DNA from: a virus
Length of the DNA stretch: 64,000 nucleotides
Reading direction: 5' to 3' (one strand)
IMG/VR virus record: IMGVR_UViG_3300037420_000928
Coordinates: 24,751-88,750 of that record
Positions 972 to 61,396 of the stretch are shown here, one piece after another (position 1 is the first letter of the stretch; every line of letters starts with the position of its first letter). Under the pieces are notes generated by a model that was given only the letters and a program-made list of their open reading frames with translations, had not been told where the DNA came from and did not search any database. A program made the position numbers and the translations under genes.

Positions 972-3137
972 ATGGAGGGTTATGTGATGCAGATACACGA
1001 TTTCGGCCCCGGAATTCAAGGCGTCGTGACAGACAAGGAAGTGGTCGGAGGAAAAGGTTCCTCGCTCGCGATCATGACCAATATGGGGCTGAACGTCCCT
1101 CCAGGGTGCATCATCGATATCCCCCACTGCCAGCAATACTGGAAGCTGAGCAGCGCGATCGAGCGGGCCAATATGGTCGGTTCTTTGGCCAACGATATCG
1201 TCAACAAGCACATCACCCACATGCATAAGGCTTATGGTTTCGTGCCGCTCTTCTCGGTTCGATCCGGGGCTCCGGTGTCGATGCCGGGGATGATGGACAC
1301 CATCCTGAATGTCGGGCTGACCACGGTCAACCTGGATACGTGGATCAAGCGGATTGGCGCCAGGGCCACCTGGGATAGCTATCGCCGACTGATCCTAATG
1401 CTGTCGACCACGGCCTACGGGCTGCCGGAGACGGTCATGAACGCGCCGATGGATGCTCTCAAGGAAAAGCTGGGGATCGAGGCTGACACCGATCTGACGG
1501 CTGCGCATCTGAAAACCATCTGCATGGCGATGAAGATGTCGTTCGAATACCACATGAACATGACGTTCCCGGACAATCCAGTGCAACAAATTGCAGCGGC
1601 GATCGATGCTGTTTTCCGGTCGTGGAACTCGGAACGGGCGATCGTCTACCGGCAGATCAACAAGCTGGAGCATATCAGCGGCACGGCGGTCACCATCCAG
1701 GCGATGGCTTTCGGGAACCTGAACGATAATTCAGGCACCGGGGTGCTGTTCACCCGCAACCCGTCGACTGGGGACGACATGCTTCACGGGGAATTCCTAC
1801 AGAATGCCCAAGGCGAGGACGTGGTGGCCGGGATACGGACCCCGAGACCGCTGGAAGAGATGGCCAAAATCGACAAGTATTGGAATGGTGTGCTGACCGA
1901 GATAGCCACGGTGGCTTCCAAGCTGGAGGACTATTACAAGGATATGGTCGATATCGAGTTCACGGTTCAGGATCACAAGCTTTATGTGCTACAGAGCCGG
2001 GTAGGCAAGCGAACAGCCCGAGCGGCGATGAAGATCGCCACCGATCTGTACGACGCCGGGATCATCGATCAGGACATGCTGTTTTCCCGGATCACCAAGA
2101 GCCAGTACAAGATTTCCAAGCGGCCGCAGGTGGACCCGGCGTGGAAGAAGAAGCCGCTGATGGAGGGGATCAATGCTTCCCCGGGTGTGGCGCGTGGTGT
2201 GGCGGTGTTCACCTCAGCGCAGGCGGTTATGGCCAGGGAGGCGGGGCAGGACGTGATCCTGATCCGAACCGAGACGACGCCTGACGATATCGCCGGAATG
2301 AATGCTGCGGTTGGTATCCTGACGGCGACCGGGGGCTCCACTTCTCATGCGGCGGTGGTCGCCAGATCGATGGACAAGCCCTGTGTTTGCGGGGTTACTG
2401 GGCTGACGGTCGGTGATCATCATGCGATCTACAACGGCGTGCCGATCAATCAGGAAAAGGACGTCGTCACCATCTGCGGTCTGACCGGCCGGGTCTGGGT
2501 CGGGGATAATGTGCCGGTAACGGCCGGGGATACGGCGCCGATCAGGAAGACCCTGTTCGACCTGCTGTCGGGGGACGCCTATCAGGTGGTGGACCTGACG
2601 GAGATCGAGGAGAACGCCATTCCGAAGAATGTGGCTTTGAAGATCGAGCATTACGTGATGCAGGGCGTCGAGCCTGACGATCTGATCCCGTCGATCGCCG
2701 GGCTGCAGGTTCTCGGGCACAACATCATGCTCGACCTGTCCATGGACAACATCGACAATACCAGGGCGCTGCGGAACATCTTCACGCCGGACCCGCTGCC
2801 AAAGCAGTACATAGACATGGTCAATCGTATCCTGGCTATGCCGAAGAACGGGGAGATCGATCCCAGTCAGGTGATTATCACCAGGGCTAAGCCCCAGATC
2901 GTGGAGTACCTGCAGAAGGCCGGGTTCGCCATCAACAAGGCAGCCAAGTCGATGAAGGACCTGATCGACGGAGCGGCCGGAGTGGAGATCACGGACGATT
3001 TCATCCAGAACGTTTTCGGCTCGAAAGAGGCCATGGCCTACATCATGGAGCTACTGGCCAAGGACGGCAAGAAAATCTCGGCTGGTAGCCGGGACATCCA
3101 CCCAGAGAGACTGTTGTTTACCAGACTTGCTGACTGA
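972..3137 (+). CDS. PPDK-like phosphotransferase: ATP-grasp plus phospho-His swivel domain, with the pyruvate-binding barrel replaced by an unrelated ~185-aa domain
   Basis: PPDK motifs GGKG, SVRSGAPVSMPGMMDTILNVG, SGTGVLFTRNPSTG, NAQGEDVVAGIRTP, DIEFT, LQSR, ETTPDDIAGM, GGSTSHAAVVAR (His codon 2346-2348). Similarity ends near nt 2580. Start at 972 or 987. Confidence 0.85.
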   Translation: MEGYVMQIHDFGPGIQGVVTDKEVVGGKGSSLAIMTNMGLNVPPGCIIDIPHCQQYWKLSSAIERANMVGSLANDIVNKHITHMHKAYGFVPLFSVRSGAPVSMPGMMDTILNVGLTTVNLDTWIKRIGARATWDSYRRLILMLSTTAYGLPETVMNAPMDALKEKLGIEADTDLTAAHLKTICMAMKMSFEYHMNMTFPDNPVQQIAAAIDAVFRSWNSERAIVYRQINKLEHISGTAVTIQAMAFGNLNDNSGTGVLFTRNPSTGDDMLHGEFLQNAQGEDVVAGIRTPRPLEEMAKIDKYWNGVLTEIATVASKLEDYYKDMVDIEFTVQDHKLYVLQSRVGKRTARAAMKIATDLYDAGIIDQDMLFSRITKSQYKISKRPQVDPAWKKKPLMEGINASPGVARGVAVFTSAQAVMAREAGQDVILIRTETTPDDIAGMNAAVGILTATGGSTSHAAVVARSMDKPCVCGVTGLTVGDHHAIYNGVPINQEKDVVTICGLTGRVWVGDNVPVTAGDTAPIRKTLFDLLSGDAYQVVDLTEIEENAIPKNVALKIEHYVMQGVEPDDLIPSIAGLQVLGHNIMLDLSMDNIDNTRALRNIFTPDPLPKQYIDMVNRILAMPKNGEIDPSQVIITRAKPQIVEYLQKAGFAINKAAKSMKDLIDGAAGVEITDDFIQNVFGSKEAMAYIMELLAKDGKKISAGSRDIHPERLLFTRLAD
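1582..1595 (+). promoter_or_regulatory. Dispersed palindrome copy TGCAACAAATTGCA (inside PPDK-like CDS)
   Basis: Exact match to the repeated 14-mer. Confidence 0.7.
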
Positions 3138-3173
3138 CATAAGCATTTGGGCAGCAGGAAAGGAGTGTGCTAA

Positions 3174-3458
3174 ATGGCTCTTGTTTTAGGTATCGATCTC
3201 CACGGGGATTTCTATGTGGGGGATGAACGTTATGAGATTTCGGAGATCATTTTGCCCACGGACATGATCGTGACCAGGGCGCGGGACGGCAAGTCCTTCA
3301 GGATCACTGACACAGAGGCCAAGGAGATCGCCCCGGACGTGTTCATGTCATCGGGCAAGCCGATGGCTGGCAAGCGGGCCAGATGCTCTCTGGACGCCCC
3401 CAGCCACATCAAGATCATGCGGGGCGACAAGTATGCGGAGGCCCACAGTCATGTCTGA
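3174..3458 (+). CDS. Small beta-rich protein, possible CsrA/RsmA-like RNA-binding fold
   Basis: C-terminal RARCSLDAPSHIKIMRGDKY resembles CsrA [20 protein letters not shown]; N-terminal LVLGIDLHGDFYVGDE resembles LILTRRVGETLMIGDE. RBS AGGAG upstream. Confidence 0.45.
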   Translation: MALVLGIDLHGDFYVGDERYEISEIILPTDMIVTRARDGKSFRITDTEAKEIAPDVFMSSGKPMAGKRARCSLDAPSHIKIMRGDKYAEAHSHV

Positions 3459-3681
3459 CAATCGGCACGTCACGGTTCTACCGGATGCCATCGTCAAAGC
3501 CAAGCGGCTGGGGATCAGCGGCAATATCGAAGAGCGCTTGAAGCGCATGGCCTTGCGGGCTGCCATCATCACCCACCCGCAAGGAAACAGGAGGTTCGGT
3601 GATTACCTGCTGCGGATCAAGGAAGGTCGGTTGGAGATGATCATGCGATACGACCCGGAAACCAAGAGGGTTTGCGGATAA
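3451..3681 (+). CDS. Hypothetical protein
   Basis: MSDNRHVTVLPDAIVKAKRLG...; overlaps the previous stop. Confidence 0.6.
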   Translation: MSDNRHVTVLPDAIVKAKRLGISGNIEERLKRMALRAAIITHPQGNRRFGDYLLRIKEGRLEMIMRYDPETKRVCG

Positions 3682-3682
3682 T

Positions 3683-3696
3683 TGCAACAAATTGCA
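3683..3696 (+). promoter_or_regulatory. Dispersed palindrome copy TGCAACAAATTGCA (intergenic, upstream of phosphatase 1)
   Basis: Exact match. Confidence 0.75.
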
Positions 3697-3725
3697 CTAC
3701 TGCCAAAACAGCATGGAGGCTCATA

Positions 3726-7446: not shown

Positions 7447-7587
7447 ATGAAATTTGTTGCAACGGAGAGCGAAGTCGGGCCGGACGGGTGCATCAAGTTG
7501 AAGTTCAAGAAAACCTACTTCGGCGTCAACATGGGAACGGTCGAGTGCATGGTCCCGGAACAAGGAGAAGTCCAATGGCGGCTGTGA
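7447..7587 (+). CDS. Possible small protein (46 aa)
   Basis: MKFVATESEVGPDGCIKLKFKKTYFGVNMG...; fills the gap between two genes but has a weak RBS. Confidence 0.35.
   Translation: MKFVATESEVGPDGCIKLKFKKTYFGVNMGTVECMVPEQGEVQWRL
7448..7461 (-). promoter_or_regulatory. Palindrome variant (reverse complement TGCAACAAATTTCA)
   Basis: One mismatch to the core 14-mer. Confidence 0.55.
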
Positions 7588-8096: not shown

Positions 8097-10536
8097 GCCC
8101 TGGCTGACCCACCAGTTCCTGCCCTTCGACGCTTCTGAGCCTGTCCCGGTCCCCAAACCCGGACAGGTTCTTTTAGCGTGTGGCTCCAAGGCCATGGACC
8201 TCCTGAAGTCGGACAAGCTGGTCCACAAGGGGCTGGGGATAAACAAGCTGCGCGAGACGGCACACAAGGCCCCCAGCGGCGGCTTCATTTTTTTGACCTA
8301 TGACCCTGCGAGTTGTGCCAGCGATCCGGCCAACAAGGCGCTGATCCAGTGGGACGTGCAACTTATTTCACGGTTCATGCAGACGGGCTCGCTCAAGCCG
8401 GTATTCGGGGATTACACCTGGGTCCCGAACTTCACCAACCTAATCACGCGGGTGCTGCTGCGGTACAAGGAAACCGGCTTGCCGGTGGACGTCTCGCTCG
8501 ATACCGAAACCATGGGATTGGTCCCCTTCCACCCCGACAAGGATTTGGTCACCATCGGCTTCACCGATAGACCTGGTTACGGGGAATGCCTCTACATCAA
8601 CGGCGTCTGCGAAGAAGACCTGCCCATCATCCAGCCTCCTATTCAGCCGACGTTCTTCGCTGAAGTCGTTAAACTGTGGAATGAGGCTCACGGTAAAAGC
8701 GAACCGTTCCCCTGGACAGTTCTGGCGCAGATAGAGTGGCTATGCACCACGCCGATGATCAAGATGCGGGGCTCCAACCTCAAGTATGACAACATCTGGC
8801 TGTACGAGAAGCTGGGGTTCAGGTGCGATAATTTCAAATTCGACAACGCGATCGTCGGCTCGCTGCTGGACGAGAACAGGTCGAACTCCCTCAACGTTCA
8901 CACCAAGACCCTCGTACCCGATCTGGGGGGCTATGACGACGAGCTAAACTCCAAGTATGACAAAGGCCATATGGAGCTTATCCCTCAGGAAGACATGCTG
9001 CCCTATGCGGCTGGGGACTTGGATGCAGCTTATCGGGTGGCCGACGAACTCCGGGATCAGCTTCTTTCCCAACCCGATCTTGCCAAGTTCTATGTGACCA
9101 TCCTGCATCCGGCTGCCAAGGCGTTCGAAATGATCGAGCACCGAGGCATCTATGTCGACACCGCTAAGTACGACAAGCTGCACAAGGACCTCGACATCTA
9201 CATCGCCAAGAAGGAGCAGGAGTGCATCAACCTTCTCCCCGGCAAGCTGAAGTACAAGTACAAGGATAAGATCGAGGCTCAGCTTGCAGCCGGAAAGGAC
9301 CCGCTGCTACCGTCGATCCTCAAGGATTTCTATTTCTCTCCCCAGGGCCTGAACCTCAAACCGAAGATGTTCACCCCCAAGCCTGACAAGAACGGCGAGC
9401 CAGTGCCGTCCATGACCCAGGCGCACCTAAAGCAGTTTGCCACCGAGAACGAAGACGCGGCCAAGATGACCAAGGTCCTCGGGGAAATGGGCAGCGCCAG
9501 CAAGACCCGCTCCACCTTCGTGATCGGCTTCCTCAAGCACCTGACGCCGGACGGCAAGTTCCACCCGACCTACATGCTTTACAAGGGCGGGTACAACGAC
9601 GACGACAGCGACGAGAGCGGCACGGTCACCGGGCGACTGTCAGCCAAGGACCCGGCATTCCAGACCATACCCAAGAAGATCAAGGACAAGAAGGCCGACA
9701 AGTCGGAGCATTGGGCCAAGCGTATCCGGGAATGCTTCATCGCCCCGCCCGGCTATGTGATGTTCAACATCGACTTCAGCCAGGGTGAACTTCGGATCGT
9801 CGCGTGTGTGGCCAACGAAACCACCATGCTGCACGCTTACGAACAGAACCTCGACCTGCACGCGGTTACCGGCGCCAAATTGGCCGGGGTCGATTTCGAT
9901 GAATTCCTGACATGGAAGGATCACCACGACGCGGCCAAGGCGGCGATGTTCGAAGACCTACGCGGCAAGGCCAAGCCGGCAAACTTCGGCCTCCTCTACG
10001 GCATGGGATGGCAGGGCTTCCAGGCTTATGCTTGGGCACAATACGGCCTCATCCTCTCCGACACCGAGGCACAGGAGATGCGCAACGCCTTCTTCGAACT
10101 CTACCCAGGGCTGGTCCATTATCACGAAGAGTACAAGGAGTTCGCGCGTCACAACGAATATGTGGAGAGCCCGCTCGGCCGTATCCGGCATCTCCCGATG
10201 ATCAAGTCGTGGGACAAGGAGGTCAAGGCGCGTGCGGAACGGCAAGCGATCAACTCCCCGATCCAATCGACGCTTTCGGATATGATGCTCTGGTCAATCG
10301 CCCTGATTGAGGCTAACTTCAACCCGGACGATGTTCGCGCAATCGGAATGGTCCATGACGCCCTTGTCGGCTACATGAGGGAAGACAAGGTGCAGCAGCT
10401 TATGCCGCAGGTCATGGAGATCATGAGCAACCTGCCGTTCCACGAATTGGGATGGGAGCCGCAATTGAAATTCCCGGTCGACGCCGAATATGGTTACAAC
10501 ATGGCTGAGATGACCAAGTTCAAACTCGCGGCTTAA
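7954..10536 (+). CDS. polA: DNA polymerase, family A, with 3'-5' exonuclease and a probable degenerate UDG-like N-terminal domain
   Basis: ExoI LDTETMG; motif A DFSQGELR; motif B RGKAKPANFGLLYG; motif C VHDA; also GRLSAKDPAFQTIP and RQAINSPIQS. True start uncertain (7954, 7995 or later). Confidence 0.93.
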   Translation: MTIWRETQSGDFILMLEKDGESFPRLLIWTSSNAATLTPIFQPCLKSKPWLTHQFLPFDASEPVPVPKPGQVLLACGSKAMDLLKSDKLVHKGLGINKLRETAHKAPSGGFIFLTYDPASCASDPANKALIQWDVQLISRFMQTGSLKPVFGDYTWVPNFTNLITRVLLRYKETGLPVDVSLDTETMGLVPFHPDKDLVTIGFTDRPGYGECLYINGVCEEDLPIIQPPIQPTFFAEVVKLWNEAHGKSEPFPWTVLAQIEWLCTTPMIKMRGSNLKYDNIWLYEKLGFRCDNFKFDNAIVGSLLDENRSNSLNVHTKTLVPDLGGYDDELNSKYDKGHMELIPQEDMLPYAAGDLDAAYRVADELRDQLLSQPDLAKFYVTILHPAAKAFEMIEHRGIYVDTAKYDKLHKDLDIYIAKKEQECINLLPGKLKYKYKDKIEAQLAAGKDPLLPSILKDFYFSPQGLNLKPKMFTPKPDKNGEPVPSMTQAHLKQFATENEDAAKMTKVLGEMGSASKTRSTFVIGFLKHLTPDGKFHPTYMLYKGGYNDDDSDESGTVTGRLSAKDPAFQTIPKKIKDKKADKSEHWAKRIRECFIAPPGYVMFNIDFSQGELRIVACVANETTMLHAYEQNLDLHAVTGAKLAGVDFDEFLTWKDHHDAAKAAMFEDLRGKAKPANFGLLYGMGWQGFQAYAWAQYGLILSDTEAQEMRNAFFELYPGLVHYHEEYKEFARHNEYVESPLGRIRHLPMIKSWDKEVKARAERQAINSPIQSTLSDMMLWSIALIEANFNPDDVRAIGMVHDALVGYMREDKVQQLMPQVMEIMSNLPFHELGWEPQLKFPVDAEYGYNMAEMTKFKLAA
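8357..8370 (+). promoter_or_regulatory. Palindrome variant TGCAACTTATTTCA (in polymerase CDS)
   Basis: Fits TG(C/A)AA-N4-TT(G/T)CA. Confidence 0.4.
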
Positions 10537-12311: not shown

Positions 12312-12325
12312 TGCAACATATTGCA
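12312..12325 (+). promoter_or_regulatory. Palindrome copy TGCAACATATTGCA (intergenic, upstream of head protease)
   Basis: One mismatch to the core 14-mer, in the spacer. Confidence 0.7.
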
Positions 12326-12384
12326 CTGGCTCCACGCTTCCGTATTAATGACCTCAATTCTGATTTGGCTGGTCGAGGGAGTAA

Positions 12385-15131: not shown

Positions 15132-15157
15132 GGCTCTTGCGCGGCGCTGACCTGACC

Positions 15158-15193
15158 GGAGGGGGAGGGAGCTTCGGCTTGCCTCCCTCTTCT
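15158..15193 (+). terminator. GC-rich hairpin after capsid gene (cUUCGg loop), possible terminator or processing site
   Basis: GAGGGGGAGGGAGC-TTCG-GCTTGCCTCCCTCTTC; lacks a good U-tract. Confidence 0.4.
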
Positions 15194-16465: not shown

Positions 16466-17094
16466 TGAAGATTTCCCTTTCGCTCAAGGTACAGGGCCGC
16501 GAATACATGTCCCCCAGCCGGGGGATTTCTGCGTTTCGGGCTCAGCTTCAGAAATCGTTCGAAGAGGGCGTCGAGAAGGTCAAGCCTGATATGCGCGTCT
16601 ACCTGGACGAGGTCGTGGAGGCTCTGGTCGAGAAGCACTCCAAACCCTGGCCAGGAGGGACGACCCCCAACTCTCTGTCGAAGCGCAGCGGCGCGGGCGT
16701 GCAGTCGATCCGGGAAGGTGCCAAGATCACAGGCGGCCGACTGGACACGCTCAGAGCCCGGCTACAAATACCTACTCCGATGGCCTATCACGAGGCTGGC
16801 TATACCAAGTCTGCGGCTGGGAAACTGCTGACCATTCCGCTCCCGGCCGCGCTTGACGGCAGAGGCGTGCCATTGCGGCGGAGCCCGAGGGACTGGGAGA
16901 ACACATTCGTCACCACGTCGAAGAACGGCAACCTGATTATCTTCCAGCGCAAGGGTCGGCGCATCGTACCGCTCTACGTGCTGAAGGACAGCGTCAACGT
17001 CCCGCCACGGCTGGGAGCACGGGCCGCCTTCCAATCTGGAATTCCCCATTTCCAGGAGCGCATGGCTGACGACTTCGCCAAGGCATTCCAGTGA
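16465..17094 (+). CDS. Probable neck / tail-completion protein
   Basis: Basic; YHEAG and KLLTIPL...LYVLKDSVNVPPR motifs; position fits. Confidence 0.55.
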   Translation: MKISLSLKVQGREYMSPSRGISAFRAQLQKSFEEGVEKVKPDMRVYLDEVVEALVEKHSKPWPGGTTPNSLSKRSGAGVQSIREGAKITGGRLDTLRARLQIPTPMAYHEAGYTKSAAGKLLTIPLPAALDGRGVPLRRSPRDWENTFVTTSKNGNLIIFQRKGRRIVPLYVLKDSVNVPPRLGARAAFQSGIPHFQERMADDFAKAFQ

Positions 17095-17105
17095 AATAAA
17101 TTGCA
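17092..17105 (+). promoter_or_regulatory. Palindrome variant TGAAATAAATTGCA (gene junction)
   Basis: Identical to the copy at 57966. Confidence 0.55.
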
Positions 17106-19945: not shown

Positions 19946-20140
19946 ATGCAAGTCAAAGTCTACGTTATTCAGCGCTACGACAAGAATGGTAACCCAGGCG
20001 AGGTTATCGACGTCAAACTGTCCTTTGCGGCAGCCCACGACATCGCCAAGAAATATGCCCCAGCCAAAGTGCTCTACGACCTAGCGGACAAGTCAGACGT
20101 CATCTCCAAGCCGGTTCCATTTGGTAGCCAGCCAAAATGA
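19946..20140 (+). CDS. Small hypothetical protein
   Basis: MQVKVYVIQRYDKNG...; no clear RBS, and it starts right after a terminator. Confidence 0.4.
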   Translation: MQVKVYVIQRYDKNGNPGEVIDVKLSFAAAHDIAKKYAPAKVLYDLADKSDVISKPVPFGSQPK

Positions 20141-20151
20141 AATATATTGCA
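20138..20151 (+). promoter_or_regulatory. Palindrome variant TGAAATATATTGCA (upstream of tail chaperone)
   Basis: Fits consensus; AT-rich intergenic context. Confidence 0.55.
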
Positions 20152-21131: not shown

Positions 21132-24100
21132 ATGGCGACGTCTCAGGAACTTGAATTCATCCTTCGTATGCGGGACGAAGCATCTCGGGTCCTGTCGCAG
21201 TTTGGGGCGGGGGCAACACAGACCGGGGGGCAGCTTGACGGCTTGACCTCCCGGTTTGATGAACTGACCCGCGCTGCAAGAAATTTCACTGCGGTGATCG
21301 CCGGGGGTATGGCGGTCAAAGGCCTCACCACTCAGACGCTGGGAACTTTCCGAGAATACCAGAACCAGATGACCATGGTGGCGAAGACCACCGACCAGAA
21401 CAAGCAGCAGATGGGCGACTTCTCCAAGGCGCTGGATAAGACGGCTCTATCGCTCAAAGGCATCCAGGTCAGCGAACTACAGCAGTTTGCTCAGGTCGCC
21501 GGTCAGCTTGGCATCACCGGCTCCGACAACATCCTGAAATTCTCTGCGGCGATGGCCAAGCTGCAGCGCTCATCCAACGTCCAAGGCGCGGAAGGCGCGA
21601 CCCAGCTTGCCAGGACGATGGGGCTGACCAACACCCCGATCGATCAGGTCGAGAAGTTCTCCGGTGTGCTGGTCGAACTCGGCCGCACCATGAAGGCCAA
21701 TGAAGAAGAAATTCTCAACATGGGCATTCGCGTGGCGCAGACCACGGCCAATTTCAAGCTTGGCTATCAGAACGTTCTGGCGATCTCGGCCGAAGCATCC
21801 GACCTCGGCTTCAAGCCGGAACTATTCTCCTCGGTCATGGGCCGTGCCCTCGGGCAAATCCAGAGCGCTGCCGTCAACAACACCAAGGCGATGAGGCAGT
21901 TCTCCAAGGTCACAGGAATGACCTCGGACCAGATGTCTGCACTGATCAAGAACAATCCTTCGGAGGCGTTCCTGAAGTGGCTGGACGTCCTCAATCAGGT
22001 GGACGCGGCCGGGGGCTCGACCATCCAATTCCTACAGGACTGGAACCTGTATGCCCAGGAAAACGCCCAGGTCCTGGACGTGGCGGCCAAGCATGCGCAA
22101 GACTTCCGGGACACCATCGTCAAGGCATTCCGGGAAAGCGAGATCGCGGCTGACAAGAATGCCCTCAATCAGATGTATGCCAAGACGTTCGATAACCTCG
22201 ACACCGCCGTGCTCGATCTGAACGATGCCTGGACAATCTTCACCAAGAACATTGGTGCCGCCCTAGCCCCTGGCGCGATTGCCGGGCTCAATCTGCTGAC
22301 CGACGGCGTGCTTGGATTGACCCACGCTTTCGCAGCCATGCCCGAGACGGCTCAGCAAATTGTGGCCTGGGGAGCCCTGATCGGAACAGCCACGATCCCC
22401 GCCGTTGCCGGGTTCAGACTGTTGGGGACGGCTATCCGTTTTGTGCTCCCCGGGATCGATGCGCTGGCCGGGTCTTCCCTTGTTGGGGCCATTGCCAAAT
22501 TCTTGCGGATCAGCAATCTGACCTCGCTCTGGATGCGGGGGACGAATGCGCTCGGGATCGTTCTCGATAACTTCGGCGGCTATGTGACGGTTGCCTACCG
22601 AAGCCTCGCCACGTTCTCGGCTGGACTGACGGATGTCGAACTGGCAGCCAAGGCGCTATCTACAGCCGTTGAGGGAATTGGTGCTGCCGCTGAGGGCTCC
22701 TTGTATGCCCTGACGGCACTTGCCGTTTACAAGGGATTGGACGCTGTTCCCCATGCCGGTTATCAAAGTGCCCAGCAGAAGAACCCCAACCTCCTGATCG
22801 ACATGGCCAACCAGCGTAAGATGGAGAGCCAATACCCAGGCGGCGTCGAAGGCGGGTTCGGCCGGATCGGTGGCTACGGGGATTTGGCTCCTAAGCCTAA
22901 CGCCGGGCAGTCTCTCGATCTGATGCGGCAGCAAAACGAGCTTCTGAAGAAGAACACCGAGGCCCTGAACAAGAACGAAGATGCCAAGATGGCTATGCTT
23001 CTTCGTCAGATCAAGCCGTCGGCAAACTTTCCCAAGCAACTGGCGCCTGAATACGATAACGCGCTGCAGAAGCTTGACAAATTCCGTGACGCCCAGAACG
23101 AGGTCATCCAGCAGACCTATGCTCTGGAGGCCCTTACTAAGCTTTCCCACGATCCTACCAATAGCTCGGAACTCGGCGGCCCCAACAAGGCGACGGACGA
23201 GACCCTGGCCCGCTATGGCAAGCTGCTGGAAGTTGCCAAGCGGATGGCTGACCCGACCCAGCAGATGATCTATGACCTCGGTGTCGAGCAGAAGCAGGTC
23301 ACTGCGATCACAGTGGCGGATCAGAACCGACTGGAGATCGAGAACCAGCTTCGCAAGCTGCTGGAAGACAAGGGCATCGTTATCGAAAACGAGAAGAAGC
23401 GGATCACCGACATCCTGCAGGAGACCCAGCGCCTCAAGTCCGTCACGGAAGCGGCCAAGGAAGGCTACAGCCTCGATAAAGAACTTGAACAGGCTCGTGC
23501 CCGCAACAGCCTCAACCAGCAGGCCGTGACGATTGAGCAGAAGATCAACGATTTCATTCGTGATCGCGCCAATCTGAACCAAACCCAGATCGACCAGATG
23601 CGGCAGCAATTGACGCTGATAGCCAATACCCAAGCGTTGAATGCGATCCAGGATCGGGCCATGCCAGCGCTGGCCGGCCTGCGGCAATACCTGGATGACA
23701 TGGCGCGCTTGAAGCAGGCTTTGGCTTCCAATGTCATCACACAGCAGGAATACAATGCGGAGGTCGCTAACCTCCAGAAGATGAACCTGCAAACTCGTGA
23801 TCCTCTCGGGTCGCGGGTCCGTGACATGCAGCAGGAAGTCGACCTGCTTCAGTATCAGGGCCGGGAGCAGGAAATCCAGCGCCAGAAGATGCAGGAGATC
23901 AATGCGCTCCGGGATCAGGGCGTGCAGCTTGATGAGAAGGGCAAGCAGCTTATCGAGGATTATGTCCGTGCCCTGCAGACGGCCAAAGAAGCGCAATCGA
24001 CCGGCTTCCAGGCTTGGGCCAATCAGCTTGGCACCATGCAGCAGCAGATCGGCAACCTGCAGCAGAGCATTGCCAACAGCTTGAGCGACGGCATCACCGA

Positions 24101-40304: not shown

Positions 40305-40318
40305 TGCAACAAATTGCA
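40305..40318 (+). promoter_or_regulatory. Dispersed palindrome copy TGCAACAAATTGCA (upstream of lysis cassette)
   Basis: Exact match, intergenic. Confidence 0.75.
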
Positions 40319-42138: not shown

Positions 42139-42442
42139 CCGTTTCACCAAGGCCAAGGTCGAAACCACCAAGGCCCAGGAGGCGCAAAAGGACTTGGCGC
42201 TCGTGGACCAAGCAGTGCAACTTCTTGCACAACAGCCCCCTTTCCCCGACGACTGCAAGAGTACGGTATCGTACCATGTTGTGGATAACGATCGACTGGA
42301 CGTAGCCCTCGACAAGGTGGACCTCGCGCTTTCCATGGCCAACAGGAAAATCCTACGCTGTGCTGAATGGGGCACGTCTGTCGAAAAAGGGATTAATTCC
42401 TTGAAAAAAGCTAGCAATTCGCAAAGTTTTGCACTACAATAA
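42068..42442 (+). CDS. Outer-membrane spanin lipoprotein (Rz1-like)
   Basis: Probable TTG start 42068 after AGGGAG; PKLLLAIALLGGLFGSG-C lipobox; PPFPDDC and RC motifs. Confidence 0.7.
   Translation: MPKLLLAIALLGGLFGSGCATIGDRFTKAKVETTKAQEAQKDLALVDQAVQLLAQQPPFPDDCKSTVSYHVVDNDRLDVALDKVDLALSMANRKILRCAEWGTSVEKGINSLKKASNSQSFALQ
42216..42229 (+). promoter_or_regulatory. Palindrome variant TGCAACTTCTTGCA (in o-spanin CDS)
   Basis: Perfect arms, different spacer. Confidence 0.45.
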
Positions 42443-43582: not shown

Positions 43583-44836
43583 GTGGCTTATAAAATCCAA
43601 ACCGCCATCAAGGCGCGTGTTCCGATCGTAACCTGTACCACCCGAGACGTCGCCAATCTGGTCGCGGTCCTCCAGCATATGTTCCCCAATAACATCGTCC
43701 AGCAATTCGTCAACCCTGACATGGCGATGAAGGAAGGCACGATCGCTTATGCGGTCAATGCGGCGGTGACCAACAGCACCGACGGGGCGATGCTGCGTCA
43801 GAAATTCCAGAAGGCCAAAAGCACGCTGCTGCTGGTCAACCCGGCACCGAACCACGACGACAACATCAGCATGTCGACCGGCCTGCTCCCGGTGCCCAGA
43901 GAACTGCTGGCAAAAATGCTGCAGATCACCAATCCCGAGACCCTTAAGCATGCGATGGCGGCGCTCGGTGGTCTGACAATCCGGGAAGCCTACGAGACGG
44001 CAACCTTCTCGATGGCGGAGACCGGCGCCCTGACCCCAGCGGGGCTCGCCAAAGCGAGATCGGAACTGTTCAAGCCACAGAAGGGCCTTTACCCGGTGGA
44101 CACGCTCCAGGACTTCTACAAGCCTTCCCCGGAGATCGAGGAGTGGGTGGAAGACGAACGCGATTTCTTCCTGACGGCGACGGACAAGCGGCTGATCCCG
44201 AGGGGGCTGATGCTCGACGGCCGGCCGGGGACAGGTAAGACCGAAGCAGCCAAGTATATTGCAAGAAATTTCAATGTGCCGCTCTACCGCCTCGATCTGG
44301 CCACCACCCAGGACAAGTATGTGGGCAATTCGGCCAAGTTCCTGCAAGCCAATCTCGACACCATCGACCAGCAGGAACCCTGCGTGGTGCTGATTGACGA
44401 GGTGGAAAAGGTGGTCAACGTCAAACTGACCTACACCACCGAACTGCTCTCCATGCTGCTCTATTGGATGCAGACCCACACGTCCAAGGTCCTGGTCATC
44501 TGCACGACGAACGATCTGGACAGCGTCCCGGCTGAATTCTACCGACCGGGCCGCATCGATCAGGTGTTCAACATCGAAGGCGTGAAGCAGGAACATCTGG
44601 CTGACTTCGTGACCTCGGTGCTGCAGGCTTATGGCCATGCGGACGACGAATTCCTGCACACCAAGATCATGTCCTTGCTGAAGACCAAGCACGGCGGCAA
44701 CCTGATCGCCCCAGCCGAGATCGAAAACGAGACCCGTAAGCTTATCAAGAAGCTGGCCAAGACCAAAACCACGAAGGCAGATGTGGCCCCGGGAAAAAAG
44801 GTCGTACAGTTCCTGAAACCCCTTGTGAAGAAGTAG
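43583..44836 (+). CDS. AAA+ ATPase (Ycf46-like architecture)
   Basis: Walker A GRPGTGKT, KYVGNS, Walker B VLIDEVEK, sensor TTN, RPGRID. Confidence 0.85.
   Translation: MAYKIQTAIKARVPIVTCTTRDVANLVAVLQHMFPNNIVQQFVNPDMAMKEGTIAYAVNAAVTNSTDGAMLRQKFQKAKSTLLLVNPAPNHDDNISMSTGLLPVPRELLAKMLQITNPETLKHAMAALGGLTIREAYETATFSMAETGALTPAGLAKARSELFKPQKGLYPVDTLQDFYKPSPEIEEWVEDERDFFLTATDKRLIPRGLMLDGRPGTGKTEAAKYIARNFNVPLYRLDLATTQDKYVGNSAKFLQANLDTIDQQEPCVVLIDEVEKVVNVKLTYTTELLSMLLYWMQTHTSKVLVICTTNDLDSVPAEFYRPGRIDQVFNIEGVKQEHLADFVTSVLQAYGHADDEFLHTKIMSLLKTKHGGNLIAPAEIENETRKLIKKLAKTKTTKADVAPGKKVVQFLKPLVKK
44260..44273 (+). promoter_or_regulatory. Palindrome variant TGCAAGAAATTTCA (in AAA CDS)
   Basis: Fits consensus. 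Confidence 0.45.
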
Positions 44837-48520: not shown

Positions 48521-48580
48521 ACCTTGAACTACGAAAGCTCCCGCGATACACTCAAATCACCATCATGAAAGGAATTCGTT

Positions 48581-50408: not shown

Positions 50409-51379
50409 AGAAGGATGACGTTTTCGAATTCTTGGACTGCGTCGGGGCGGTCCCCTCAAAGAAGCAAGCCAGAGCCAAATGGGTGACGAGTTCCTGCCCG
50501 ATGGTCTGGAACCACAAGGATGGTAAATCCTCTGCTGATGTGTTCGGCGTCAAGCTGGAACAAGGCGATCCCCTCTGTCATTGCTTTGCCTGTGGTTGGG
50601 GGGACAGCGCCCTCGGAACCACGCTGGAGATTAAGCGCCAGACGTCGGAGGAGTACCAGAGCAACCTCAACATCAAGCGGGCGATGGAAATCTGCGTCCA
50701 GGCCAGCGACGACATCGAGCTTGAATTCGAGGACGTCGATTACGAGGAGGCTTTGAAGAAGGACGAGGTCACCGTTTTCGATGATTGGTGGATCGAGACA
50801 TTCCCGTCAGTGCAACAAAGTGCACTCGGGATGCACTACCTCAACACCAGACTTGGGGGGCCGATCGACCCGGATGTGATAAAGTTCCTAGACCTGCGGT
50901 TTGACCCGAACCAGAAGCGGGTTTGTGCTCCGGTGAAGAACAAGAAAAACCAGTTCGTGGGGCTCCACGGCCGGGCGATCTACGATGATATCGACCCACG
51001 CTACCGGATGTACACCTACAAGGGCAAGAATAATCCCCAATACTGGCTGGGGGAAAACTGGGTCGACCTGGAACAGCCGTTGGTGGTGGTCGAAGGCTAC
51101 TTCGATATGGCTCGCGTCCTGCCAGTCTGGCCGAACGTCGCCACCCCCTTATTCGCCAATCCGAGCATCGAAAAAATGAAGCGCATGGCCGGGGCTTCGG
51201 AGATCATCACCTTCTTCGATTGGGGGGCTGGCGGTGACTTCGGGCGTGAGAGGTTCCAGAAGCAATTCGGGTCCACCCACCTCATCAGCCACTGCAAACC
51301 ACCGGCTGGGGTCAAGGACCCGGGCGCCTGTACCCACGGGCAAATATTCAGTGCGTTGGGGCCATTTTTACCGATCTGA
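50405..51379 (+). CDS. DNA primase (Zn finger plus TOPRIM)
   Basis: CP..NH...CHCFACG; VGLHGR; LVVVEGYFD; FFDWGAGG; KDPG. Confidence 0.82.
   Translation: MKKDDVFEFLDCVGAVPSKKQARAKWVTSSCPMVWNHKDGKSSADVFGVKLEQGDPLCHCFACGWGDSALGTTLEIKRQTSEEYQSNLNIKRAMEICVQASDDIELEFEDVDYEEALKKDEVTVFDDWWIETFPSVQQSALGMHYLNTRLGGPIDPDVIKFLDLRFDPNQKRVCAPVKNKKNQFVGLHGRAIYDDIDPRYRMYTYKGKNNPQYWLGENWVDLEQPLVVVEGYFDMARVLPVWPNVATPLFANPSIEKMKRMAGASEIITFFDWGAGGDFGRERFQKQFGSTHLISHCKPPAGVKDPGACTHGQIFSALGPFLPI
50811..50824 (+). promoter_or_regulatory. Palindrome variant TGCAACAAAGTGCA (in primase CDS)
   Basis: One mismatch to the core 14-mer. Confidence 0.55.
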
Positions 51380-52867: not shown

Positions 52868-54261
52868 CTAACATCGCTCGATACATGATGACGGAGCCTC
52901 CATTGGTGACCGGCAGCATGGCCGTCTATCCCTACAGTTATGCACTGGAGAGGAAGTTTCGGTTCACCACGCGCTTCGATGACCCAATCGAGCTATTCAG
53001 GCGGGAGGGTGATTACATCCATCTGCCTCGGGCGGTCTGCCCCATCGGGGAGGTCGACAATCGGATACAGGGTGAAAAGGTTCTCTTCCCTAAGTGCCCT
53101 ACCCCTCGGCCGAACCAAGTCAAGATGTTCAAGGACGTCAAGGAATTCATCAGCCAGGAACTATCCGGCGTGGCGGTGGCACAGACAGGCTTCGGCAAGA
53201 CGATCCTCGGCTATCTCGCGGCTTATACGCTGCAGGTAAAGACGCTGGTCATCACGACCAAGGAGGACATTTTCGAGCAATGGATCGACGGTGCCTGTGG
53301 ACGCAAGAGCCAAGCCAACCCCGGGGGTATGAACTTCCTCGGGCTGGAATGGGAAGAGGTCGGGGAGATCAGAGGCGACAAATGCCAAGTCGTCGGAACC
53401 AAGTTCTGTGTGGCGCTCGTGCAATCGCTTTGCAAGGAAGGGCGTTACCCGGACTGGATCGGGGATGATTTCGGGCTGGTCATCTTTGACGAATGCCACC
53501 GGATGCCCGCCGACTATTTCAAGACGGTGCTGGAGAAATTCGGCGCCAAGGTCAGGATGGGATTGTCAGCGACACCCGACCGCAAGGACGGTAAGGAAAT
53601 CTTGCTTTACACTCATGTGGGGCCGATCAGGGCGCAGGATGAAACCGAGAGCCTGACCCCGAAAGTCTTGCGCTACATGACCGGCTGGGAGTGCCCAAAA
53701 CGGTACATGATCGATGAAGACACTGGACATAAGACTTGGCGTAAGATACCACATACGGCGGGCAAAACGACCCACATTGAGAAGATGTTGGCAGAAGACC
53801 CCGCAAGGAATGCGATGCTTCTGAATGCCATTGTCGAGTGCCGCGAAGCAGGGAGATCAACTGTCGTTTTTTCCACGCTGATCGAGCATCTTCAGTTGCT
53901 GGAGCAAGCGTGCAACAAATTGCACAAAATCCCTTTCAAGGACATGGGGCTTTACAAGTCTGAGGGGACGAAGGAGGGCAAGGCAGAAAGAGAGCGCGTT
54001 AAGACACGACCAATCATTTTCACCACCTATGCCATGATGTCGGAAGGGACCAACATTCCATGGCTGGACACGGCGATCCTGGCAATCCCGCGATCGGATG
54101 TCCGGCAGGCGGTGGGGAGAATTAGACGAGAGTACGAAGAGAAGAAGTTTCCCGTAGTCCTCGATTTCATGGACCTGGACAGTCCGGTTTTTTATGGCTA
54201 CGCGAATAAACGCCGCGACTGGTACAAATCCATCGGGGCGGAAGTAGTGGAAATGAGTTGA
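52864..54261 (+). CDS. Superfamily 2 helicase (UvsW / T5 D10-like)
   Basis: PRPNQ, AQTGFGKT, VIFDECH, GLSATPDRKDG, SEGTNIP, QAVGRIRR. Confidence 0.88.
   Translation: MTNIARYMMTEPPLVTGSMAVYPYSYALERKFRFTTRFDDPIELFRREGDYIHLPRAVCPIGEVDNRIQGEKVLFPKCPTPRPNQVKMFKDVKEFISQELSGVAVAQTGFGKTILGYLAAYTLQVKTLVITTKEDIFEQWIDGACGRKSQANPGGMNFLGLEWEEVGEIRGDKCQVVGTKFCVALVQSLCKEGRYPDWIGDDFGLVIFDECHRMPADYFKTVLEKFGAKVRMGLSATPDRKDGKEILLYTHVGPIRAQDETESLTPKVLRYMTGWECPKRYMIDEDTGHKTWRKIPHTAGKTTHIEKMLAEDPARNAMLLNAIVECREAGRSTVVFSTLIEHLQLLEQACNKLHKIPFKDMGLYKSEGTKEGKAERERVKTRPIIFTTYAMMSEGTNIPWLDTAILAIPRSDVRQAVGRIRREYEEKKFPVVLDFMDLDSPVFYGYANKRRDWYKSIGAEVVEMS
53911..53924 (+). promoter_or_regulatory. Dispersed palindrome copy TGCAACAAATTGCA (in helicase CDS)
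   Basis: Exact match. Confidence 0.7.
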
Positions 54262-57959: not shown

Positions 57960-57964
57960 TCCCG

Positions 57965-57993
57965 TTGAAATAAATTGCACCAGCGCCTATGAT
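57965..57993 (+). promoter_or_regulatory. Sigma70-type promoter overlapped by a palindrome copy (57966-57979, TGAAATAAATTGCA)
   Basis: TTGAAA-N17-TATGAT. Confidence 0.7.
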
Positions 57994-58047
57994 CTTTCCC
58001 GACCCGACAAAACGATCCGGTCCCCACCATAGAAGGTATCCCACACA

Positions 58048-59247
58048 ATGGCATCAGCACTTAGCGCACTGAAGAAGGCGACCGGCGACAAGAAGACGCT
58101 GGCCGAAGAATTGAAGGCCGAAGCTCCGGCCCAGGAACCCGAAAGCGTCCAGTCTACCGAGACGACCGAAGCGCCCGAACAGGAAGCGGTCGAGATCGAC
58201 ATCGAAAAGATGACCGCCAAGGAAATCGACAAGCTGATTACTGACAACGGCTTTGACAAGATGGAAGGCTTTCCGGCCGACTGGAAGAAGTGGAAGAAGG
58301 ATCAGAAGGTTGCCTGGATGCAGGAGAACCTTGCCGCCTCCGACGATCAGCCGGCTGCCGAAGAAGCTGCGGCCGAAGCGCCGGTCATTGCCGAACCCAC
58401 ACCGGTTGAACCGGAACCCACCAAGCCGGCCAAGAAGACCGTCACCAAGAGCAAGAGCACGGCTATCGCCACTTCGTCGGTCAAGCATGGCGACGTCATC
58501 TCCCCCGATGACTTCTCGAATGCCGTTTCCGAGATCGAGAACCTGAAGGCCAAGGACGCCCTGGCGCTGGTCAAGCAACTGGCCGACGCTGGCGACGTGG
58601 CGATGTTCAAGCTCGGCGGCGTGCTGGAGCGCATTCGCACCGATGGCTGGTTCAAGGAACTTGGTTTCGAAACCTTCCGCCAGTATGTCGAAAACACCCA
58701 GGACGTCGGCTACCGCACGGCCCTGTACTGGACTGGCATCTACCGCAATCTGGTCAATTCCGGCATCGACTTCCATCAAGTGGCCTCGGTCAAATGGTCG
58801 AAGCTGAAGGAGATCGCGGAGGTCGTTACCAAGGAAAACGTCGAGTTCTGGGTGGAGAAGGCCAATAGCAATTCGATCGAGACCCTGAAGCTACAGGTGT
58901 TGAACTACAAGAAGTCCGGCTCCAAGCAGATCACCGACCAGCTTTCCGAGGCGCCGGAGAACATCATCACCACCATGCAGTTCAAGCTGCATTCCGACCA
59001 GAAGGAAAACGTCGACGCGGCCCTTGAAAAGGCCAAGGCGGAAGCCTCGACCGACGTCAATTCAGTGGCACTGGAATTCATCTGCCTCGCCTACAATTCG
59101 AACGCCGTCGCCTCCAAGCCGGTGCCGCAGAAGAGCATCATCGACATGATGAAGGAAGCCGGCATCGAAGAAGCGGCCCAAGCCCTGATCGACGCTTTCC
59201 CTGAATATCAATTCGAGGAAATCAAGGCGACCCCGGTTGAGGGTTGA
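58048..59247 (+). CDS. Hypothetical protein with an acidic/disordered N-terminus and a possible HTH-like DNA-binding core
   Basis: GFETFRQYVENTQDVGYRTALYWTGIY helix-turn-helix-like segment. Confidence 0.7.
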   Translation: MASALSALKKATGDKKTLAEELKAEAPAQEPESVQSTETTEAPEQEAVEIDIEKMTAKEIDKLITDNGFDKMEGFPADWKKWKKDQKVAWMQENLAASDDQPAAEEAAAEAPVIAEPTPVEPEPTKPAKKTVTKSKSTAIATSSVKHGDVISPDDFSNAVSEIENLKAKDALALVKQLADAGDVAMFKLGGVLERIRTDGWFKELGFETFRQYVENTQDVGYRTALYWTGIYRNLVNSGIDFHQVASVKWSKLKEIAEVVTKENVEFWVEKANSNSIETLKLQVLNYKKSGSKQITDQLSEAPENIITTMQFKLHSDQKENVDAALEKAKAEASTDVNSVALEFICLAYNSNAVASKPVPQKSIIDMMKEAGIEEAAQALIDAFPEYQFEEIKATPVEG

Positions 59248-59301: not shown

Positions 59302-59315
59302 CGAAATTTGTTGCA
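59302..59315 (-). promoter_or_regulatory. Palindrome variant (reverse complement TGCAACAAATTTCG)
   Basis: Two mismatches to the core 14-mer; intergenic. Confidence 0.45.
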
Positions 59316-60234: not shown

Positions 60235-60818
60235 AGACGTTTTCCAAGGGAGAGAAGGCGGTCGCTACGGTCTGGGAGGACCGACGCCGGTATGTCATCA
60301 ACCAATTGTACAACATGCACACGAAAGGACTTAGCCCGTATTTAAATCTCTCTTATCTGGAGGAAATTAAGGGCTTGTCGCCCAGTTATTCAGAGATGCT
60401 TACTCCATTAACCACAACCACCAAGCCTTACAAGCTAAGCTTCCATATGAGCCTGAAACACGGGTACTACGAGTTTTATTGCGACTACCCGTGGATCATG
60501 GTTGAGCGCATTCAAGCAGGCTTGATACAGTACGTACTGGAAGAGCAGCCAGGGTATGTGCCCTCTCACTTTGGCATGCACGAGGGCTGTAAGGATGAAA
60601 TACGTGAGCATTTCACACACATTAGAAGCGAAGCGCTAACGAGCATCAATACCTACGGGCTGTTTTTCTGCCACATTTACCTGACCGGCTTCTTTCTCAC
60701 TTTACGCTATTTCAGGCGGTACACCCTGAAAGACGAGGACTTCCCTAAATATGCGATCCTCGCCACGCCCGCGAATTTTAGCTGGACGCAGTACGTGGTT
60801 GAAATTGGCAATTTATAA
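60231..60818 (+). CDS. Hypothetical protein, visibly AT-richer than its neighbours
   Basis: GTGA overlap with the previous stop; Tyr-rich. Confidence 0.55.
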   Translation: MKTFSKGEKAVATVWEDRRRYVINQLYNMHTKGLSPYLNLSYLEEIKGLSPSYSEMLTPLTTTTKPYKLSFHMSLKHGYYEFYCDYPWIMVERIQAGLIQYVLEEQPGYVPSHFGMHEGCKDEIREHFTHIRSEALTSINTYGLFFCHIYLTGFFLTLRYFRRYTLKDEDFPKYAILATPANFSWTQYVVEIGNL

Positions 60819-60967
60819 AAACTGTCTTGACTTCTATTGAAATTTTGTGGCTTAGATGATTTCATCATCAGGAGATGGACCAAATGGAATTGATCATCGA
60901 CGGTGGGAACAAAATCTGAGCCTAGCGGTTTCAAGGTTGCCCGCCACTATACTAAGAGGTAACCAAC

Positions 60968-61147
60968 ATGCTGAACTCGGAAATCAAAGCCCTTCAGGCC
61001 ACGGTCGATAAGCTGACCCTCGAAAAGAGGCAGCACCTTCCTTCCAGCCGGGAGGCAATCCGGCTATCCGACAAAATCAGGGCCTACGAAGCTGTCATGA
61101 ACCTGCCGGGTTTCATCGTGTATGCTACCCAGCAGAAAGCCGCCTGA
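60968..61147 (+). CDS. Small hypothetical protein (59 aa)
   Basis: Hand translated MLNSEIKALQATVDKLTLEK...QKAA; GAGGT RBS. Confidence 0.55.
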   Translation: MLNSEIKALQATVDKLTLEKRQHLPSSREAIRLSDKIRAYEAVMNLPGFIVYATQQKAA

Positions 61148-61175
61148 CTGACATTCAACTTGGGGAGGGACACCC

Positions 61176-61382
61176 ATGGCTGAAGCACCGCTCGATGCCG
61201 CCGAAATCAACAGGGAAGCTGCTATCGCCGCGCAGGTCTTCGTGACCGCGCTGGCGGAGCACATGCTGAGGGTCAACATCACTTACGAGTGCCCACGGAT
61301 GCGGGGCGCCGTCCACCGGGCGATCAGGGAACGGATACCCCAGACGCTCGATCTTGTCTTGCTGCCTCCAGAGCTTGCCTAA
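61176..61382 (+). CDS. Small hypothetical protein
   Basis: GGAGG RBS. Confidence 0.6.
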   Translation: MAEAPLDAAEINREAAIAAQVFVTALAEHMLRVNITYECPRMRGAVHRAIRERIPQTLDLVLLPPELA

Positions 61383-61396
61383 TGCAATTTGTTGCA
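61383..61396 (-). promoter_or_regulatory. Dispersed palindrome copy (exact core 14-mer on the minus strand)
   Basis: TGCAATTTGTTGCA, intergenic. Confidence 0.75.

Follow-up and report, generated by a model that had tools for sequence, protein, structure and literature searches.

The stoperators of phage L5 are asymmetric 13-mers that are oriented with transcription, bound by the repressor gp71, and belong to an immunity system. In the plasmid prophage N15, four palindromic centromere sites are dispersed over the genome, belong to the SopB system with its SopA partner, and are reported to influence late gene expression. On plasmid RK2, KorB, a clamp of the ParB family, is loaded at dispersed palindromes, from which it silences promoters at distances of up to 1.5 kb (PMC11790492). 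Cluster O mycobacteriophages carry more than 30 copies of a 17-bp dyad, TGTTCGG-N3-CCGAACA, and this repeat was described as stoperator-like in its distribution, but symmetric (PMC4351075). The subject of this study is an array of a short palindrome, TGCAA-N4-TTGCA and its variants, in a 64,000-nucleotide stretch of DNA (referred to as the window) from the virus record IMGVR_UViG_3300037420_000928, corresponding to bases 24751-88750 of this 99,670 bp record from a soil metagenome. Judged from sequence comparison, the array is a real and strongly selected set of protein docking sites shared by a whole clade of phages. Its role is most likely genome-wide transcription control, and possibly chromosome organisation, by a phage DNA binder that would resemble ParB and KorB. 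With all of its parts taken together (docking array, ParB/KorB-like reader, and genome-wide control), we regard this explanation as rather probable, with modest confidence.

Distribution and selection of the palindrome

In the window, the exact palindrome TGCAACAAATTGCA occurred seven times (on the + strand at 1582, 3683, 27110, 29536, 40305, and 53911, and on the - strand at 61383), compared with 0.00 copies in dinucleotide-preserving shuffles, and TGCAACATATTGCA was found at 12312 and 46796. When the half-sites were allowed to vary (TGMAA-N4-TTKCA), 17 sites were counted in the window, where 0.33 were expected and none of 100 shuffles had more than 2, and the whole genome of 99.7 kb contained 31 sites versus 0.7 expected. 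The copies at 50811 and 59302 each had one mismatch, and the two copies of TGCAAGAAATTTCA, at 21275 and 44260, were weak or chance-looking; that at 44260 was not kept in relatives. A previous inspection of the letters alone (referred to as the sequence-only reading) had described a 14-bp palindrome scattered over this DNA. Its coordinates all proved to be correct and the palindrome is real, but alignment of the sites revealed a longer motif, (cA)G-TGCAA-YWWR-TTGCA-C(tG), which is a palindrome of 16-20 bp with a centre that is also symmetric. No conserved element flanking the sites was found in this alignment within 40 bp on either side. The centre occurred in both orientations although the approximately 143 predicted genes were all located on one strand. 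The centre CAAA was found 9 times on the + strand versus 2; the numbers are small and agree with the excess of A over T in the coding strand, so no use was made of them.

Copies within genes were compared with those remaining after synonymous codons had been permuted, with every protein sequence and the codon usage kept. Four genomes contained 14, 11, 10, and 13 in-gene copies versus 0.1-0.5 after shuffling: 14 versus 0.50 in this genome, and 10-13 versus 0.10-0.23 in three relatives. The array thus passed the codon-preserving check that had been proposed together with the motif. The in-gene reading frame was mostly xTG-CAA-CAA-ATT-GCA (102 of the 166 pooled copies), and the remaining two frames require a Cys codon. 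Selection acts on the sites as DNA, and not at the level of protein or RNA.

Half-site variants were one-sided, with C3 to A in 37 cases and G12 to T in 30 cases, and double variants were no commoner than independence predicts, indicating no covariation. Conserved variant sites barely folded as RNA (-0.3 to -3.2 kcal/mol), and the logo was symmetric, including the YWWR centre, with symmetric degeneracy and no conserved asymmetric flank. Since the variants were one-sided without covariation and RNA folding was weak, a hairpin is probably not what is conserved, and the conserved entity appears to be a symmetric protein-binding site on double-stranded DNA. There is good support for the initial proposal that a dimeric protein binds the sites, from this symmetry, from selection at synonymous sites, and from conservation in the clade. 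An RNA or single-stranded DNA hairpin, acting in processing, termination, or priming, or as a translational operator, would suit genes that all lie on one strand and the many copies located just 5' of ribosome-binding sites; furthermore, perfect copies and their flanks are foldable, reaching -7.7 kcal/mol (z -3.6) at 40305. However, the 67 one-sided variants would give A-G or C-U mismatches with no compensatory changes, and the variant sites that are conserved fold as poorly as described above. Moreover, the loop positions are themselves palindromic, the N1-N2 centres of Rhizobium phage RHph_I4 leave no loop, no T-run follows the sites, and the clade conserves the half-site sequence rather than pairing. 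We consider a hairpin hardly credible.

Relatives were collected via the portal protein. The DNA of this genome was found in the source soil metagenome only and in no RNA run, and an exact-word scan of IMG/VR with the 14-mer yielded single chance matches only. The closest cultured relative was Rhizobium phage RHph_Y1_11, with a nucleotide identity of about 76% (this genome and its group are labelled G000, and an IMG/VR relative, G001). The array was present in every relative examined, siphoviruses of 80-110 kb with hosts in Rhizobium, Rhodobacter, Stenotrophomonas, Pseudomonas, and Vibrio, and TGCAA-N4-TTGCA or TGCA-N6-TGCA was by far the most over-represented palindrome in the relatives found. 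Among 13 genomes, the half-site TGCA(A) was constant, while the centre was specific to the lineage (YWWR in this genome; Table 1). Conservation in relatives, the second check on the array that had been suggested at the outset, was therefore observed. Positionally conserved in-gene sites were located in the genes for the ParB-like protein, PolA, the helicase, and the 169-amino-acid (aa) protein at 46728 (13-14 of 14 positions, with flanks 64-81% identical). The copy at 46796 was kept at 12-14 of 14 positions in RHph_Y1_11 and TM16 (flanks 68-69% identical), and that at 3683 at 13 of 14 in the same two phages (flanks 68-75% identical). Other sites were turned over between relatives. No publication describing the TGCAA array was found when the motif and phage names were looked up. 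The array is among the strongest non-coding signals in the genomes of this clade, and is kept even inside essential genes by means of synonymous codons; the clade is large and widespread, several of its members have been cultured, and some have been considered for therapy.

Spacing and promoter geometry

Copies occurred about every 3 kb in the genome. Their spacing was more even than random in nine of nine genomes (coefficient of variation of 0.48-0.68 versus 0.95), and also more even than a gene-structure null consisting of random intergenic gaps and random coding positions (eight of eight genomes). The longest gap in the array, 10.8 kb (29536-40305), coincided with the expanded 3745-aa gpJ-like gene, and the shorter gpJ genes of relatives held a mid-gene copy, which suggests that the expansion may be recent and that sites have not yet been filled in. 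When 13 genomes were pooled, 174 of 340 sites were located in non-coding DNA, which accounts for 10.8% of the DNA (about 5-fold enrichment). In the window, 8-9 of 17-19 sites were intergenic in a genome with a coding share of 89%, in agreement with the earlier estimate of about half. In the same pool, many sites began 0-9 bp past a stop codon, and the distance from site to next start codon was bimodal (10-29 and 60-79 bp).

Sigma70-like promoters were searched for as TTGACA-N16-18-TAnnnT. A -35 hexamer began 22-23 bp after the start of the palindrome at 18 sites versus about 0.7 expected, placing the palindrome centre near -51. This class was the sole promoter position clearly beyond chance, with predicted 5' leaders of 20-40 nt, and was found in TM16, G001, G003, G004, RcZahn, DLP_5, SIO-2, and RHph_I4. 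In RHph_I4, a composite promoter occurred 11 times, consisting of the palindrome, 8-9 bp, TTGACAAAGGATCG, a spacer, and TAGnTT, with predicted leaders of 21-45 nt (examples in Table 1). Because its spacer sequence is conserved, it suggests a possible second recognition element. Elsewhere, the palindrome was located over the -35 element and spacer (promoter of the 58048 gene), over the transcription start (40305), or in the interval from a stop codon to the following ribosome-binding site. No -10 element was conserved downstream across the sites when one was looked for. The half-sites TTGCAC and TTGAAA were also considered as -35 hexamers and rejected: their counts were near chance once the built-in match was allowed for.

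Palindrome-associated promoters were near consensus, and the geometry of the palindrome differed between lineages at orthologous promoters. On both counts, repression or timing appears more likely than activation. The late-gene activator sites that had been proposed for the palindromes are consistent with the subset at a fixed -51, but not with the half of the sites inside genes or the varying promoter geometry.

Several individual copies were associated with particular local arrangements. At 12312, the right half TTGCAC was followed 16 bp on by TATTAA, which is a promoter-like arrangement. The copy at 40305 was located directly after a promoter-like element, TTGACT-N16-TAACGA, and covered the expected transcription start, likewise in RHph_Y1_11. 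The position at 17092 was also occupied in RHph_Y1_11, TM16, and G001, with an RNA fold of only -0.3 kcal/mol, and the site upstream of the 173-aa tail-region gene (20212) was kept in five of six genomes having this gene. Separately, ATTCTGATTGG was found at 12340-12387 of the window, approximately 25-30 nt upstream of the prohead protease start, and was kept in G000, RHph_Y1_11, TM16, and G001; it may be a leader or translational signal. Outside the window, an operon at 14976-16118 of the genome, encoding a GNAT acetyltransferase, an Xre helix-turn-helix (HTH) protein, and a protein bearing the C-terminal domain of RapZ, was located behind a conserved TTGACT promoter, with a palindrome approximately 15 bp past the expected start.

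Table 1. Palindrome copies in the window, other features, and array-bearing genomes. Positions are those of the window unless another sequence is named.
Feature	Position	Strand	Remarks
Exact copy inside PPDK-like gene	1582..1595		Lineage-specific; not kept in TM16 or G001
Gene-junction copy	3683..3696		1 bp past stop codon, 29 bp before phosphatase-like gene at 3726
Variant copy inside 76-aa open reading frame	7448..7461		TGAAA left half
Copy in DNA polymerase I gene	8357..8370		TTTCA right half; 13-14/14 in three relatives, flanks 66-77% identical
Copy 62 bp upstream of prohead protease gene	12312..12325		Site upstream of protease gene in 11/13 genomes
Junction copy over stop codon of upstream head gene	17092..17105		11 bp before next start codon
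Junction copy, 60 bp upstream of gene at 20212 (173 aa, tail region)	20138..20151		
Weak variant (TGCAAG...TTTCA) in tape measure gene	21275..21288		Position-6 G departs from logo; possibly chance
Exact copy inside 241-aa tail gene	27110..27123		
Exact copy inside 3745-aa gpJ-like gene	29536..29549		Not kept in RHph_Y1_11
Exact copy 23 bp before 92-aa gene at 40342	40305..40318		
Copy in 570-bp gap past lysis region	42216..42229		14/14 in RHph_Y1_11, flanks 67% identical
Weak variant in AAA ATPase gene	44260..44273		Probably non-functional; not kept in four relatives
Copy 68 nt into 169-aa gene (46728)	46796..46809		Gene follows O-like initiator gene
One-mismatch copy TGCAACAAAGTGCA inside primase gene	50811..50824		
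Exact copy inside helicase gene	53911..53924		13-14/14 in three relatives, flanks only 64-72% identical
Variant copy over -35 and spacer of TTGAAA-N17-TATGAT	57966..57979		68 bp upstream of 58048 gene
Candidate binder, 399-aa protein	58048..59247	+	Acidic disordered N-terminus and 250-aa helical domain
Degenerate copy CGAAATTTGTTGCA	59302..59315		54 bp past candidate binder gene
Exact copy directly after stop codon	61383..61396	-	99 bp before gene at 61496
Prophage boundary, tyrosine integrase (Hyphomicrobium)	L195:10478-11617	-	
Prophage boundary, tRNA-Pro gene (Hyphomicrobium)	L196:4478-4555		
RHph_I4 composite promoters, examples	79993, 81515, 95443, 99680, 105044		
RHph_Y1_11			30 sites; G-TGCAA-YWWR-TTGCA-C
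TM16			24 sites
G001 (IMG/VR)			28 sites
G002			22 sites in 70 kb; centre T-CA/TG-A
G003			15 sites in 33 kb; centre TTAA
G004			8 sites in 27 kb; centre TTAA
G005			At least 4 sites; TGCAG-YTAR-CTGCA
RcZahn			28 sites; TGCAG...CTGCA dialect
DLP_5			38 sites; centre T-CA/TG-A
RHph_I4			45-53 sites; centre C-NN-G
Pseudomonas SM1			30 sites; centre RCGY
Vibrio SIO-2			9-14 sites; weaker array

Candidate readers of the array

A Hyphomicrobium sp. chromosome (4.6 Mb), reached via a relative of the ParB-like protein, contained 27 exact copies of TGCAATTAATTGCA, and 26 of these were located within one prophage of ~97 kb, at about 2,428,500-2,530,600; one-mismatch copies, among the matches listed, were all inside the prophage. 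This prophage was syntenic, belonged to the clade, had about 50 sites, and also carried GcrA-like and ThyX-like genes. It is integrated, with integrase and tRNA-Pro boundaries, and shows that phages of this mostly virulent-looking clade can lysogenise. The Hyphomicrobium host itself does not use the site, which argues for a reader encoded by the phage. Such a reader is much the most likely, because the host lacks the site, two Rhizobium phages differ in the centre, and some dialects break the core recognised by IHF.

The opposite view, that the phages recruited the sites of a conserved host protein (IHF, or a regulator of the LacI/CytR type), draws on several likenesses. IHF has CAA-N4-TTG as its core, TGNAA-N4-TTNCA is built like a LacI-family operator, with a central CG in the SM1 dialect (TGCAA-RCGY-TTGCA), and the half-site is constant even though the hosts span two proteobacterial classes; the RHph_I4 dialect resembles the inverted octamers of CytR. 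On the other hand, only one exact copy was found outside the prophage versus 26 inside, and the two Rhizobium phages had different centres (YWWR and C-NN-G). The IHF consensus, WATCAANNNNTTR, is asymmetric, and the array matches it at CAA-N4-TTG only and not across all lineages: the TGCAG...CTGCA dialects (RcZahn and G005) break this core, and the invariant outer TG/CA bases lie outside the consensus. An IHF reading, raised from the letters alone, is consequently unsupported, as the exact site is also nearly absent from the chromosome that bears the prophage. In LacI-family operators (TGNAANCGNTTNCA), there is a central CG step, whereas the centre here is YWWR, with CG only in SM1; no LacI-family protein was found among the phage proteins scanned, and there is no reason for 30-50 evenly spaced operators of a sugar repressor. 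A host protein is very unlikely as the reader.

With regard to the host, GANTC (a CcrM/HinfI-type site) was wholly missing from this genome (0 versus about 370 expected). The count was also 0 in RHph_Y1_11, TM16, G001, and RHph_I4, and 1 in RcZahn, while it was near expected in DLP_5, SM1, and SIO-2, which have gammaproteobacterial hosts, and partly depleted in G002-G005. Because GANTC is absent here and in several relatives, this points to a probable alphaproteobacterial host and to strong avoidance of GANTC-directed methylation or restriction.

Family scans covered roughly 70 of the 143 predicted proteins, and DNA-binding candidates were few among them. The best candidate found was the protein of the 58048 gene, which had already been named, together with that of the 45730 gene, as a potential binder by the sequence-only reading; the latter was missing from several motif-bearing genomes. 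The family of the 58048 protein, phrog_17202, is large and lacks annotation; it has 1,596 cluster representatives in metagenomes at E <= 0.001. Homologues in cultured phages are the product of the open reading frame at 47701-48561 in DLP5, gp66 of RcZahn, EVC30_035 of RHph_Y1_11, and EVB27_031 of RHph_TM16, and R84, W111, and K113 of the conserved domain are invariant in the family. A hidden Markov model of this family detected a member in each of the 10 motif-bearing genomes that were complete or nearly so, RHph_I4 and SM1 among them; distant family members were located on contigs too short for a motif count. A palindrome was found 60-84 bp upstream of the gene in seven of nine genomes and in the Hyphomicrobium prophage, where the homologue is likewise followed by a copy, ~99 bp past the gene. 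The conserved 250-aa domain was modelled by AlphaFold2 with a predicted local distance difference test score of 86. By an exhaustive aligner, residues 27-155 were matched to the DNA-binding domains of Caulobacter ParB-parS (Z 8.4), Spo0J (7.4), KorB (6.4 and 5.7), SopB (4.4), and VirB (4.3). Structure neighbours in the Atlas were DUF3102 families, often fused to ParB_N. Of the candidates, the 58048-59247 protein is the most likely reader, at somewhat less than even odds.

Several points weigh against this assignment and against the explanation as a whole. For a protein made up of helices only, a Z of 8.4 or less is modest; a Rubisco chaperone reached 8.7. Foldseek with the 58048 model gave nothing significant against the Protein Data Bank (PDB), and the protein had no sequence match in Pfam or the PDB. 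Co-occurrence with the motif is common to every core gene of the clade and is, thus, weak evidence, and the best-conserved upstream site was that of the protease gene, not that of the candidate binder. Sliding or spreading is speculation for a protein that has no ParB CTPase domain, and no detectable homology was found between the 58048 family and the ParB_N protein described below, including its C-terminal half. Moreover, the offsets of half-sites as -35 hexamers were, by estimate, about as chance would give.

Other proteins were considered as the reader. The 45730 protein had weak PHROG matches to O-like/DnaD-like replication initiators; it and a second HTH protein (genome 12081-12476) were rejected, both being absent from several motif-bearing genomes. 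The reading of the 58048 protein as a sigma factor was also rejected because it was based on non-significant Foldseek rows only. A related proposal, in which a sigma factor or RNA polymerase of the phage reads the sites directly as promoters, is in line with the enrichment of sites upstream of head, tail, and other genes, and with the inclusion of sigma factors among the weak Foldseek rows. These matches had a TM of about 0.14 and VIA Z of 3.8 or less, however, and no RNA polymerase gene was found among the scanned proteins or in the annotation of two relatives. The sites are, furthermore, symmetric and without a conserved downstream element, half of them are inside genes, and their distance to start codons and -10-like elements varies; direct reading by such an enzyme is thus highly improbable.

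The gene order around the candidate, RecA/UvsX-like protein, Holliday-junction resolvase, exonuclease, RuvC, and candidate binder (54994-59247), was kept, including in unrelated metagenomic contigs. Because of this conserved order, the role of the 58048 protein could be in recombination or replication rather than in transcription.

The protein adjoining the terminase gene (genome 21573-22466) had only the N-terminal fold of ParB/Srx (PadC, Z 13.1; KorB N-terminal domain, 12.5). Its match to PF02195 had an E value of 3e-5 and 24.3 bits, just under the Pfam cut-off of 26.3 bits. The family is very conserved (identity of at least 50%), and its own gene contained, within the 3' end, a deeply conserved site in the G000 group, G002, DLP_5, and the prophage. 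Neither a helix-turn-helix nor a ParB DNA-binding domain was detected in residues 120-297. If this ParB_N-fold protein itself bound the palindromes, they would constitute a dispersed parS-like centromere array for the partition of a plasmid prophage, or for packaging or condensation, and not for transcription. The fold and conservation of the protein suit this possibility, as does the site in its own gene, since parS is often in or near parB, and the even spacing suits an organising role; DLP5, moreover, is said to persist as a phagemid. However, in addition to the lack of a detected DNA-binding domain, no ParA-type partner was found among the ~70 scanned proteins or in the annotation of two relatives, and the protein was undetected in SIO-2, which keeps a weaker array. 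About 50 sites are retained in the integrated prophage, for which partition is unnecessary, and the fixed -51 geometry points to transcription. We regard a purely centromeric array as unlikely. The genome-organising sites of the parS/matS type suggested by the sequence-only reading were retained in part: a genome-wide reading of the parS/KorB kind seems to fit best.

Operators or stoperators of a phage repressor, silencing the genome as L5 gp71 does, were also considered. The 97-aa Xre-type protein (HTH_3; genome 15409-15702, outside the window) is the candidate for this role: it is 65-70% identical in close relatives and present in RcZahn and G003, a site is located just upstream of its operon in G000, TM16, G001, and G003, and the clade includes at least one integrated prophage. 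Nevertheless, jackhmmer found no homologue in DLP_5, RHph_I4, SM1, SIO-2, or G002, which have 14-53 sites each, and no integrase was found in this genome among roughly 70 of 143 proteins scanned. The sites are palindromic, and not asymmetric and oriented with transcription as those of L5 and Bxb1 are, so that stoperators in the strict sense were dismissed. The Xre-type repressor is an improbable reader.

In the explanation that we favour, a dimeric DNA-binding protein of the phage would dock, on double-stranded DNA, at the palindromes, which form a genome-wide array kept throughout a clade of siphoviruses that have genomes of 80-110 kb and infect Proteobacteria. The reader would be the 58048-59247 protein with its predicted ParB/KorB-like helix-turn-helix domain, maybe together with the ParB_N (CTPase-fold) protein adjoining the terminase. 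The bound protein would act on host RNA polymerase at associated promoters, and the in-gene copies would leave no part of the chromosome farther than 2-4 kb from a site, which is what one would predict if a protein loaded there spreads or slides like KorB/ParB, or organises the chromosome. A bolder version, which we think doubtful, is a split system of the ParB/KorB type, in which the DNA-binding-only 58048 family and a separate CTPase-fold-only protein run the whole chromosome, with the recognition code co-evolving by lineage. If this were true, spreading or sliding complexes on 30-50 evenly spaced palindromes would silence, time, or organise the genome, by a code in which the TGCA half-site is fixed and the centre drifts. 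Knowledge of the reader would explain the timing or silencing of ~100 kb of one-directional genes, and would provide a function for a large uncharacterised family, possibly also for the phage ParB-like "nuclease" adjoining terminases, as well as natural orthogonal protein-operator pairs, one per dialect.

Comparison with known systems

The array is similar to L5/Bxb1 (Cluster A) stoperators in having tens of sites over the genome, in short intergenic gaps and inside genes, and presumably in being bound by one phage protein that acts on transcription across the genome; it differs in that its sites are palindromic and that much of the clade lacks the one small HTH candidate. As in N15, palindromic sites are scattered over a phage genome and the reader is, here perhaps, of the ParB family, whereas there are 30 or more sites, a ParA was not seen among the proteins scanned, and an integrated prophage retains the array. 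Compared with parS of ParABS systems, the sites are spread evenly and not clustered near parB or the origin, with one conserved site inside the ParB_N gene.

The closest similarities were found with two systems. Like OB, the site of KorB on IncP plasmid RK2, short palindromes occur every few kb over a mobile genome, both near and far from promoters (PMC11790492), and KorB is a global regulator in which a ParB-family helix-turn-helix reader reaches promoters from distal sites (PMC11790492). In KorB, however, one chain contains the CTPase N-terminal, DNA-binding, and dimerisation domains, whereas here the DNA-binding-like fold and the ParB N-terminal fold belong to two separate proteins. The two site sequences are unrelated, the copies here number 30-50, many of them in genes, and no KorA-like partner was identified. 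The Cluster O repeat is also an exact palindrome with more than 30 copies per genome, about a third to a half of them in coding DNA (PMC4351075). Its sequence, lineage, and hosts differ, and it is confined to one close cluster, while the phages with the present array have hosts in at least five genera, and in them the half-site is conserved and the centres diverge. KorB/OB is the nearest mechanistic model, and the Cluster O dyad repeat, the nearest descriptive parallel.

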